A stretch of 64,000 nucleotides of DNA from Octopus vulgaris. Lineage: Eukaryota. The stretch is taken from positions 11,470,001 through 11,534,000 of the forward strand of contig OX597826.1 of the NCBI GenBank assembly GCA_951406725.2. The letters are read 5' to 3'. This document shows positions 13,771 to 20,377 of the stretch, one piece after another. Each line of letters begins with the position of its first letter. Positions within the stretch are counted from its first letter, which is position 1. Under the pieces are notes generated by a model. It did not search any database, was not told where the DNA came from, and saw only the letters and a program-made list of their open reading frames with translations. The translations under genes and the position numbers were made by a program.

Positions 13771-14760
13771 ACAGATGATACGTTTGTGAATCTGAGAGGA
13801 GAATATGTTGAATAAGATCGTAATTAACTGATTCTCCTGTTATTCTCTTTGGTGTCCGGTCAATTCGTCGACGGCAATTTGTGGTCGTTTAATTTGTCCC
13901 CAGTAAATTCGTCCCCAGGTCAATTCGTCGTCTTCATCGAGATCATAGGAAAAATGGAAGAACGAATATCTGAATTAACGTTTATTTTAAGGTTTGCTCT
14001 ATGACATATTTTTCTTTTTTTCTTAAAAAATTTTCTCATTAGAAAAATAATTTTTTGGCTTGGATCCTTTTTTTCCACGAGATTTTTTATACTCAGGTTC
14101 ATATCTTTGCATTTTCTCTCTTCGTTTCGTTCTTGTCCTTACATAAACTTCTGCAATTTGGTACTGGAAAACCTTTCCGCGCATTTAATCACATCAGTAA
14201 GTTTCCAAATATTTGGATTACTAATATATATTCACTGTGTCTTTTAGCGCGTTGTGATAGGCTCATAAACTATTTGTAGTACGAGCAATCCCCGTCATAC
14301 ATCGATCCCAAACATTTCGTATATGTAATGAAAATGGAGATTCAAAGTGTCGCCTCCTCTGTCCTCTTCCTCTAGGTGGTCCAATATAATTATTTTCAAA
14401 ATAGGATACAATTGACAGTGGAATATCATCATCTACAAGTTATTCATATCCACCTACAACTTCATCAATTGGCAGGAAGGCAAGGGCAACAAAACACCGC
14501 ATTTTTACACTAAAACTGTCATCTTCGTGACATCTGCATTTTAGACCTTCTTGCAGCATGCCAAATTCGACACAAGAAACTATTCCAGAAATCCGTTATT
14601 GGCTGCTCTTTCGAAATTCATAATTATATTATCAGGTCCCTCTGCAGTAATTCATTTATATTGGCAAAAAGTCTTCTATATGTATCTTGACTTTTGTCAA
14701 AGAGTAATGCGAAAAATAGTGGGGCATTCAAATCATCAATTTGGTTGTGAAGTATATATA

Positions 14761-14992
14761 TTATTCTTTACTGCCCACAAGGGGCTAAACATAGAGGGGG
14801 CAAACAAGAACAGGCAAAGGGATTAAGTCGATTACATCGACCCCAGTGCGTAACTGGTGTTTATTTAATCAACCCCGAAAGGATGAAAGGCAAAGTCGAC
14901 CTCGGCGGAATTTGAACGCAGAACGTAACGACAGACGAAATACGGTTATGCATTTCGCCCGGCGCGCTAACGTGTCTGCCAGCTCGCCGCCT
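14761..14992 (-). mobile_element. Family B SINE inserted in the MULE
   Basis: 20-bp TSD ttggttgtgaagtatatata at 14741-14760 and 14993-15012. Confidence 0.92.
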
Positions 14993-15542
14993 TTGGTTGT
15001 GAAGTATATATAACTGAAAAAATATACCAGAGCAACACTTATATGTTCCATCTGCCGCCCCTGTTCTTGTTCTGTTTTACCTGTCGAAGTGCATCGTCAC
15101 TTGCAAACATTTGTATTCGTTTCGAATCTTCCATCCCGCTGTCATACTGTAAAAACGCTTCATCACTGTCAAGGGAGGAGTATTCACTTGGAATGGAAAA
15201 CCCAACATTTGTAAGTGGGGTGACAGGATAGCTGGGATCAGCTTCTGAAATTCACTAACGATAATTGAACGAGGAGCATGACGAGATGAAATCGACTTTA
15301 CTTTCATATTTGAAACTATTATCCTTGCATTTACCTCTGCAGCAGTTGAGGCATGATTATGGATCACAATCTTCTTAAGTTCTTTATAATTTTCAGCTGT
15401 ATGAAGTTCCGCCTTGAACACACGATTTTCGCACCTCTAGTATACCTTCAATCCATCCACATTCTGCTTAATTTTTTGTGTTTATATAACTTTCTTGATC
15501 GACCACTTTGATTTTTACTTTCTCTGAAGTTATGATCTTGCA

Positions 15543-15603
<61 letters not shown>

Positions 15604-15746
15604 TATTACGGAGATGTACTTGCATAGCGAGTGACTTGATCTGAGATCGTGTGCTGGAACGAAAACAATTGCAGCGTGGAAGGTGTTTATAAGCCATTTA
15701 AGGAACACACAAAAACCGTTAGATTCAATTCAAGATTTAAATTTAA

Positions 15747-15797
15747 TTTGTCAAAATATTTTCGTCGCTTTGAGACCGCGACCTGTTCACTGACAAA
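15747..15797 (-). ncRNA. Minimal hammerhead ribozyme, G3-C8 variant, in a short element (~15607-15820) running into (TA)n
   Basis: tttgtca-GTGAACA-G-GTCGC-ggtctcaaa-GCGAC-GAA-AATATT-T-tgacaaa: 7-bp stem I, 5-bp stem II, palindromic stem III. Confidence 0.65.
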
Positions 15798-15881
15798 ACT
15801 TCGTGCTGATGGGGAAGCGTATTGAATAAATTTAATATGATTTGCTTGAAAATCTTTGTTTGTAAACTGTGCAGATACTTA

Positions 15882-15956
<75 letters not shown>

Positions 15957-16321
15957 TAAAGAAAGGAAGAGATGTCTAAAACTCTCCAACGACAATTTTA
16001 ATTCTAAAGTGATTGTTGTAAATTTCCCTCGAAAATCACATTTAAGAGTATTTTGGCCAGCGTCGAATTGACCTGGGGATGAATTGATCGACGACGAATT
16101 GATCAGGGACGAACTGTCCAAGCACCATGTATGTATGTATGTATGTATGTATGTATGTATGTATGTATGTATGTATCTATGTATCTATCTATCTATCTAT
16201 CTAACTATGTATGTATGTATGTATATGTATATTTACCAGAGTAAGCAAAACTGTCCAATGAACAGGAACATGAAACTCTGAGTAACAGTTTTTGTGATAT
16301 TTTTGCTGTATTTTAACAAAG

Positions 16322-19109: not shown

Positions 19110-20377
19110 TTAGTTTGTCTCACATGAAATGTATTTTAAATGGGTTTCTTATGAGTCATCTATAAATGGATTTTTAATGAGTTTCTCTCTATATGCTTGT
19201 GTTTACTCTTAACTCATTTTCTTTCTAGACAATACTATTATTCAAAATTGCTACCCACAGCTCTTATGACAATGTTGACAACCGAACAATACCAAATGGT
19301 TTTCTTGTACGAATACAAGTTGGGTCACTCTGCCATCGAAGCTCTACGAAACGTCAAGCGGGCTTTTGATAACGATTCTGTTGACATTAGAACTGTTGAA
19401 AGATAGTTCCAAAGATTTCGTTCAGGAAATGAAAGCCTTGAATATGAACCAAAAGAGAGACCAAAATCATGTATGCGGCATGATGAATTGAATGCTTTGG
19501 TTGAACGAAAACCGAGAACAACGGTCCGAAAAATCGGATCAGAGCTCCAGACATCTCCCCCAACTGCTTCTCGGCTCTTGAAGAAAATTGGAAAAGTCAA
19601 AAAGATGGATAGGCTTGTTCCCCATCAACTTAATGACATTCAAAGAAACAGAAGACTTACATTATGTTCCATGTTGATTTCTCAGTTGGAAAGAGAACCA
19701 TTTTTGTATCGACTCATTATATGTGATAAGAAATGGGCACCCTTTGATAACAGCAGGAGGACAGGACAATGGTTATATGCAGGAGAGTCACCAAAACACT
19801 ACTCAAAACCACCATTGCACCCTAAATAGTTGATGGTCACTGTATGGTGGTCCACAAAAGGGGTTAAACATTATTTACTTTTGCAACAAGCAAAAACTGT
19901 AACAGCAACATCCTATTTTCAGGAAATTGATTGTATGCATGAAAAACTAAAAAAATAAGCAAGCCAGATTAGTGAATAGATATGGCCCAATTTTGCTTCA
20001 TGATAATGCACGGCCTCACACTTCTCGAGCTACGGTCCACAAGTTGCAAAGCCTAATTTTGAAATTTTGGCACATCGTCTATACTCTCTCTATATCTTTC
20101 CTACTGATTATCATATATTTAAACACTCCGAGCTTGCTATACGTAATAAAACATCCTTAAATAAAGAAGAGGTAATTGAAGCATTCGAACTGTTTATCAG
20201 TGTAAAAGATGACAAATTCTTTGACGATGGAATATATGCCTTAGGGGAACGTTGGATGAAGGTCATAAATGAACAAGGATCATATTTTGATTAAATAAAT
20301 AAATATTCTAATACTTAAAAAAAAAAAAAATTAATGTTTCCTTTTTCAAATGAGACCTTTCATGTGAGACAACCTAA
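19110..20377 (+). mobile_element. Full-length mariner element (~1.27 kb)
   Basis: TIRs ttagtttgtctcacatgaaa / tttcatgtgagacaacctaa with TA on both sides. Confidence 0.93.
19266..20294 (+). pseudogene. mariner DD34D transposase pseudogene
   Basis: HTH N-terminus, LVPHQL (WVPHEL-like), IICDKKW, LLHDNARPH, YSLYIFPTDYHIF, ERWMKVINEQGSYFD; in-frame stops and frameshifts. Confidence 0.92.

Follow-up and report, generated by a model that had tools for sequence, protein, structure and literature searches.

A predicted minimal hammerhead motif with a G3-C8 core in a high-copy Penelope-like element of Octopus vulgaris

Background

Minimal hammerhead ribozymes (min-HHRs) have been described in the pseudo-LTR (pLTR) of Penelope-like elements (PLEs) that encode a reverse transcriptase (RT) and a GIY-YIG endonuclease (Cervera and de la Pena 2014, PMC4209133), and the motif reported here, from the genome of Octopus vulgaris, occupies the same place in an element of the same kind. 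The two also share an additional base that separates positions 9 and 10.1, a G10.1-C11.1 pair, a palindromic stem III that implies a dimer, the lack of a clear tertiary motif and an occurrence mostly as solitary truncated copies. The UUU cleavage triplet of the octopus motif is found in the Crassostrea gigas row of that work as well. The described min-HHRs are reported with C3-G8 and U3-A8 core pairs, whereas the octopus family has G3-C8 and a longer stem I (7 bp); none of 56 alignment rows examined in the supplement of PMC4209133 has G3 or A3.

A second close parallel is the Poseidon element PAc of Anolis carolinensis (Frangieh et al. 2024, PMC11167929), which resembles the octopus element in carrying a hammerhead at the junction of pLTR and ORF, in two internal reverse-transcription starts that define a tail, in AT-rich targets and in the use of uncut RNA as template. 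Its ribozyme needs the element protein, and a C3G/G8C double mutant partly rescues cleavage (PMC11167929), as is also stated in a review (PMC8495972). The preliminary description of the octopus motif had named the swap as a laboratory rescue mutant; in PAc, with its C3-G8 core, it is known in that form only (PMC11167929), whereas in the octopus family G3-C8 is the natural state. The ATG of PAc lies inside the ribozyme and that of the octopus element (window position 15697) 56 nt after the predicted cut. The octopus protein further has a CX3CX2C linker of the Neptune/Nematis type, which Poseidon lacks. With Neptune and Nematis endonuclease-bearing (EN+) PLEs (Craig et al. 2021, PMC8557442) the octopus element shares a C-terminal GIY-YIG domain with CCHH-type residues, a CX2-5CxxC linker, the DKxG motif, (TA)n targets and inverted 5'-truncated copies.

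Natural covariation of the 3-8 pair is known from U3-A8 cores (Perreault et al. 2011, PMC3088659), but these keep the pyrimidine-purine order, while the octopus core is inverted, with a purine at position 3. G3-C8 appears in PMC3884650 only as a laboratory variant. No natural A3-U8 core was found in the literature searched. Lunse et al. 2017, a source outside our search, are said to list a very large set of PLE hammerhead variants. Within the search, which included passages of PMC6155905, PMC6765202, PMC10085705 and PMC6962438, no natural G3-C8 core was found, and the portions covered of the hammerhead, Penelope and Octopus literature held no description of this family. Both the ribozyme type and the retroelement type are already known; what appears to be new, within the literature searched, is a natural and family-wide G3-C8 core.

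Results and discussion

Anatomy of the motif

The window is a stretch of 64,000 nucleotides of O. vulgaris (assembly GCA_951406725.2, contig OX597826.1, forward-strand positions 11,470,001 to 11,534,000). The motif reads on its minus strand and consists of the following parts, in window coordinates.

15797-15791, minus strand: 5' strand of stem I, UUUGUCA, which pairs with UGACAAA at 15753-15747 over 7 bp
15784..15790, minus strand: core G3 U4 G5 A6 A7 C8 A9, with G3 at 15790 and C8 at 15785
15783, minus strand: extra unpaired G between A9 and G10.1, a G in 131/140 copies from fetched loci
15764..15782, minus strand: stem II, GUCGC (15782-15778) with GCGAC (15768-15764), 5 bp and a 9-nt loop
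15763-15761, minus strand: G12 A13 A14, from the sequence
15760-15755, minus strand: palindromic stem III, AAUAUU, for which pairing is possible only between two molecules
15754, minus strand: U17, with the predicted cleavage site after it and the new 5' end at 15753 by hammerhead numbering
15747..15753, minus strand: 3' strand of stem I, UGACAAA, from the sequence and the predicted fold

The stems, the palindrome and their coordinates are as the preliminary description gave them, and its placement of the UUU triplet and of the cut agrees with the sequence and the numbering. Its reading of the core GUGAACA as a full inversion of the C3-G8 pair stands too, but the extra unpaired G at 15783 had gone unmentioned. 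The literal consensus CUGANGA is absent from this core; U4 G5 A6, A9, G12 A13 A14, the A15.1-U16.1 pair and H17 of the hammerhead consensus are all present, and N17 is U in 140/140 copies under a pattern that left it free. The arrangement of the three helices about the core is that of type I. The minimum-energy fold is predicted to contain stems I and II, and stem III does not close within one molecule. Together with the extra nucleotide at 9/10.1, the G10.1-C11.1 pair and the palindrome of the min-HHRs, these features identify the window motif, at the level of sequence, as a minimal type I motif of the hammerhead family with a G3-C8 core.

Folding energy alone is not significant (z of -1.70; 14/200 shuffles fold as well). 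An Rfam search of the motif region at E up to 10 returned no hammerhead match, and among 340 matches for the whole window at E up to 1 the 150 listed were miRNA and snoRNA models that microsatellites had triggered and that fell short of their gathering scores. A duplex of two AAUAUU palindromes is predicted at -0.2 kcal/mol, compared with -3.5 to -8.3 for five palindromes that contain C or G; a similar palindrome, AUAUAU, is present in the Drosophila virilis hammerhead (PMC4209133). The loop I-loop II contact is usually absent from PLE min-HHRs (PMC6155905), and no such tertiary motif was evident by eye in the window motif. The octopus sequence offers one other candidate contact: in L180 (L180:1219-1265) the inferred transcript start AGAU could pair, with wobbles, with loop II in a possible pseudoknot, seen by eye in both subfamilies; the AGAU letters are absent from the window copy. 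In hammerheads, a tertiary contact between loops I and II serves fast cleavage.

The element that carries the motif

The preliminary description did not place the motif in a high-copy PLE. The following features, again in window coordinates, define its immediate context.

15607..15808, minus strand: short terminal (pLTR) PLE fragment, comprising the 5' UTR with the hammerhead and the first 30 ORF codons
15607..15697, minus strand: PLE ORF from its ATG (15697) to codon 30 (MAYKHLPRC...), the frame continuing into the ORF of L180
15607..15662, minus strand: "tail", flanked by the two favoured 3' ends (about 15663-15667 and 15607)
15544..15606, no strand: probable target, a (TA)n microsatellite located at the 3' junction

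The fragment is 96-98% identical to genome-wide copies (query 83-284) and 88-89% identical to each pLTR end of L180, a tandem element. Its connection to a coding element was traced through an upstream sequence that is common to three loci and carried by 378 copies, and which leads through a microsatellite-rich UTR of about 1 kb to a GIY-YIG frame. A search with this frame returned copies with long open frames, and 16 of 30 such loci contained 17 matches to the G3-C8 hammerhead. Hammerheads were present in 18 of 20 fetched longer loci, four of which (hammerhead-bearing) had been chosen for their nearness to known copies, and open frames reached 1,025 aa. The 1,025-aa frame, in L177, has RT motifs by eye plus a GIY-YIG domain at its C-terminus, for which the Pfam match scores 25.4 bits against a cut-off of 22.6; Pfam returned no RT match on this frame. 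Two copies, L180 and L191, continue from the short element's 3' end into the ORF, and L180 shows the full order of pLTR, hammerhead, ATG, ORF (interrupted by one stop and one frameshift), UTR and second hammerhead. Calculated from two overlapping copies, the ORF comes to about 1,070 aa. The window copy is thereby shown to be the last 200 bp or so of an RT plus GIY-YIG element: a single ORF with a PLE-type RT followed by a GIY-YIG endonuclease, as in EN+ PLEs, and a hammerhead motif in the pLTR, as in other min-HHR carriers. The CX3CX2C linker points to the Neptune/Nematis type and, read from the linker motif alone, fits either clade.

Other candidates were considered and set aside. A 781-aa Neptune-like PLE of the same genome was rejected as a partner, as it has its own U3-A8 hammerhead and the piece of the present element in L089 is merely adjacent to it; the two families are only distantly related (23-28% identity over short stretches). 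A tandem pair on C2 (L123) is a local duplication with no PLE ORF. The short copies had also been read as a MITE, and this reading was dropped once the link to the ORF appeared. The Neptune-like PLE (L067-L090) is itself abundant, with U3-A8 hammerheads downstream of its 781-aa open frame in 6/30 loci.

Ends, inversions and target site of the short copies

A position-ordered sample of 23 independent loci was examined for the structure of the short copies. Head-to-head inverted pairs were found in 15 of them, and of the 40 arms present 19 reach the far 3' site (window 15607) while 17 stop near 15663-15667; what follows is mostly (TA)n or other AT-rich DNA. The two 3' ends likely correspond to two internal sites at which reverse transcription starts, in parallel with the anole element (PMC11167929). 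The partial tandems (L180), the inverted 5'-truncated copies and the tail are those of EN+ PLEs, for which inversions and tails have been described (PMC8557442, PMC11167929).

At the other side, short copies begin within a few bases of one 5' site. The 125 distinct 5' contexts comprise 56 long ones, in every one of which C or U precedes AGA, and 69 short ones; 20 of the short ones reach AGA, and 11 of these 20 have a G before it (position -4) and random sequence beyond, an excess with p about 2e-4 against 18% G. From work on LINEs, an untemplated G is the outcome expected when a cap is copied. The fixed 5' end, often with such a G, suggests that the short copies derive from capped, uncut RNA; since they span the cut site, the template was uncut RNA, whichever way the 5' end arose. 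From these ends we infer a transcription start about 20 nt upstream of stem I. A TATAWAWR match is present at -30 in the young subfamily, which beside AT-rich repeats is cheap evidence. Starts at the cut site are not clearly in excess: positions 77-78 account for 15 of the 74 truncated arms, with about 12 expected (an eye count over the first 100 of 468 rows listed, the other 26 being internal indels).

The swap across genome copies

The preliminary description had reported a single copy, which holds within the window, and had proposed a search for others. A 26-nt pattern that allows any base at positions 3 and 8 gives 2,948 exact matches in the genome (2.8 Gb searched), against 0 for a reversed control pattern; 2,948 is a lower bound because the younger subfamily has a different loop II. 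That subfamily also differs in several flanking bases and keeps all core and stem bases. The first 100 matches listed comprise 94 G3-C8, 4 G3-U8, 1 C3-C8, 1 A3-C8 and 0 C3-G8 cores. The canonical C3-G8 core occurs in the same frame in 2 copies genome-wide, by our estimate about the number expected from double point mutation. Contigs from sequencing runs (organism labels A, B and D) also hold the repeat, with no variant at position 3 or 8 among the rows listed (40/44). By these counts the G3-C8 inversion is family-wide, fixed in thousands of copies. The earlier expectation that the swap is rare in nature agrees with the literature searched but has to be softened in view of this genome. The likeness among copies reflects shared descent rather than selection.

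Covariation of the 3-8 pair in related families

In a quick tree of 17 rows of 200 aa or more, the sister family P0001 (54% amino acid identity) is placed with an SH-aLRT of 100. Its hammerhead lies at the same place and has the same extra G, and the 3-8 pair is C3-G8 in 40/41 matches (overlapping loci kept in). Relative to the G3-C8 family, stem II has A-U in exchange for G-C, and stem I, next to the core, has C-G for U-A. The P0001 hammerhead is itself deviant, with C at position 9 and an imperfect palindrome, and constraint on catalysis may therefore be loose in the clade. P0001 (L227-L256) appears very young, with many copies 99-100% identical and open frames of up to 1,312 aa; a perfect 5' splice donor-like GTAAGT lies about 25 nt upstream of its hammerhead.

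The well-supported group of 8 rows to which both families belong also contains metagenome relatives, among which C3-G8 was found in L257 and L261 and U3-A8 in L258 and L259 (the motifs of L257 and L259 having been read by eye), with the motif not found in two rows. The L258 motif (2480-2545) combines U3-A8 with C9 and has a splice-acceptor-like sequence right before stem I, and in L257 (4800-5050) the 15.1-16.1 pair is swapped and the palindrome is UAGCUA (partly by eye). A strict descriptor gave no G3-C8 match in 69 metagenome relative loci; the 23 matches with a Watson-Crick 3-8 pair in such relatives were 22 C3-G8 and 1 doubtful A3-U8.

Within the octopus genome, other PLE families have U3-A8 (6/30 GIY-YIG loci) and A3-U8 (171 exact matches, with A3-U8 in 99 of the 100 listed). 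The A3-U8 family (e.g. L081, L326-L335), separate from the others, has the core AUGAAUA, a 3-bp stem II and an ACCGGU palindrome. All four Watson-Crick 3-8 pairs are thus present in one genome as the consensus of a family, and no 3-8 mismatch at family level was seen in the families examined. Covariation with the sister family (C3-G8) and the other PLEs (U3-A8, A3-U8) supports a real 3-8 pair and, with it, the reading of the swap as compensatory.

What the motif may do

Our main reading, to which we assign a probability of roughly 0.65, is that the motif just before the PLE start codon likely cuts the element RNA, slowly, as a dimer and with help from the protein. The element protein would nick (TA)n DNA and start reverse transcription at one of two internal sites, both within the first 100 nt or so of the ORF. 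Copying back to the capped 5' end would then produce the thousands of inserts of about 145 and 205 bp, frequently paired head to head and frequently carrying an untemplated G, and these short inserts would be by-products. Cleavage, for its part, would leave the ORF-bearing RNA uncapped, or would trim read-through transcripts of tandems. With G3-C8, the Watson-Crick pairing by which the 2'-OH of residue 8 is positioned would be preserved and the rate would be reduced. The window copy itself is probably inert unless read through, because it is without promoter and partner.

The alternative to which we give most weight, itself improbable in our judgement, is that the motif descends from a hammerhead, hardly cuts, and is kept as a folded handle for the element protein or for control of splicing or translation. 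The 3-8 pair could be kept for structure, stem III is very weak, and deviant cores occur in the clade (C9 in P0001 and L258, the swapped 15.1-16.1 pair in L257). Uncut RNA, moreover, gave rise to the inserts, and these have no excess of starts at the cut site; the anole PLE inserts in vitro without cleavage, its hammerhead mutants leave that insertion unaffected, and no cut ends were seen in its RNA-seq (PMC11167929). Yet all relatives examined retain U4, G5, A6, G12, A13, A14 and a non-G N17, and at family level the 3-8 pair is always Watson-Crick. These residues and this pair matter for hammerhead catalysis.

A more specific version of slow cleavage, which we offer tentatively and would not bet on, treats the 3-8 pair as a freely exchangeable rate setting and the G3-C8 ribozyme as a slow, protein-triggered decapping timer. 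Its basis is the position of the motif between cap and start codon: uncut RNA would be translated and copied, after which the element protein would promote the cut and the RNA would be shut off. If true, such a timer would explain why PLEs keep hammerheads that insertion does not need.

Somewhat less probable again is that the fixed 5' end is a 3' splice site, that spliced RNA bearing a very small first exon gave rise to the short copies, and that splicing switches the context of the hammerhead. Right at the 5' end point the long copies (378 copies) show ACTAAC, which resembles a branch point, followed by a pyrimidine tract and YAG, the relative L258 has its acceptor-like sequence just before stem I, and the intron of D. 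virilis Penelope ends at helix I (PMC4209133; PMC2377424). The AG, on the other hand, is kept in only 20/69 short copies, the base at -5 is random, which speaks against a shared first exon, and the loose ends of contigs at the 5' point have no consensus beyond five letters.

Very unlikely, and largely refuted, is a non-autonomous retrozyme or SINE that moves as circular RNA produced by hammerhead cleavage. The copies are short, numerous and hammerhead-bearing like metazoan retrozymes (PMC7229834), but they do not run from cut site to cut site, are not tandem monomers, and represent the terminal part of a PLE that has an ORF, with the tails and inversions typical of PLEs; the link to the ORF led us to reject this reading, the MITE and a chance fold alike. 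A chance fold in an AT-rich repeat, compatible with the low folding score and the lack of an Rfam match, is the least probable of all; a relaxed descriptor speaks against it (1 match in the window, 0 in 60 shuffles), and it is refuted by the homologous position of the motif where related PLEs carry canonical hammerheads, and by compensatory changes relative to the sister family.

The finding defines neither a new ribozyme class nor a new element class. Its interest is that what had been a laboratory rescue mutant occurs in nature across a whole family, in an animal retroelement of recent activity whose thousands of copies, along with its sister families, provide natural controls. The series of C-G, U-A, A-U and G-C pairs in one genome permits a direct test of the effect of the 3-8 pair on rate, and the site between the inferred cap and the ATG makes the role of PLE hammerheads open to a testable answer. 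As Rfam and standard descriptors miss the motif, counts of animal hammerheads are likely too low; if the rate-setting reading is true, searches with CUGANGA would miss whole families, perhaps including PLE clades reported to be without hammerheads.

Surroundings of the window copy

In the runs X1, X3 and X11, whose RNA origin is a guess, A>G and T>C differences across window 15688-15765 are far commoner than in X18, a run that carries another organism label; at position 15691 the variant stands at about 10% in runs of the X1/X3/X11 type against 0.07% in X18. The pattern fits A-to-I editing of hairpins formed by head-to-head pairs, and includes one stem II base.

The PLE fragment lies inside a stretch of about 2.3 kb (13849-16113) with imperfect inverted repeats at its bounds (40 nt, 80%) and short remnants of transposase-like frames, probably a decayed DNA transposon; a Pfam search of the remnants flanking the fragment found nothing. 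At about 14765-14990 there is a repeat that we take to be SINE-like. Farther along the window, a 140-aa frame at 19407-19829 is presumably a fragment of a mariner/Tc1 transposase, as which it reads.
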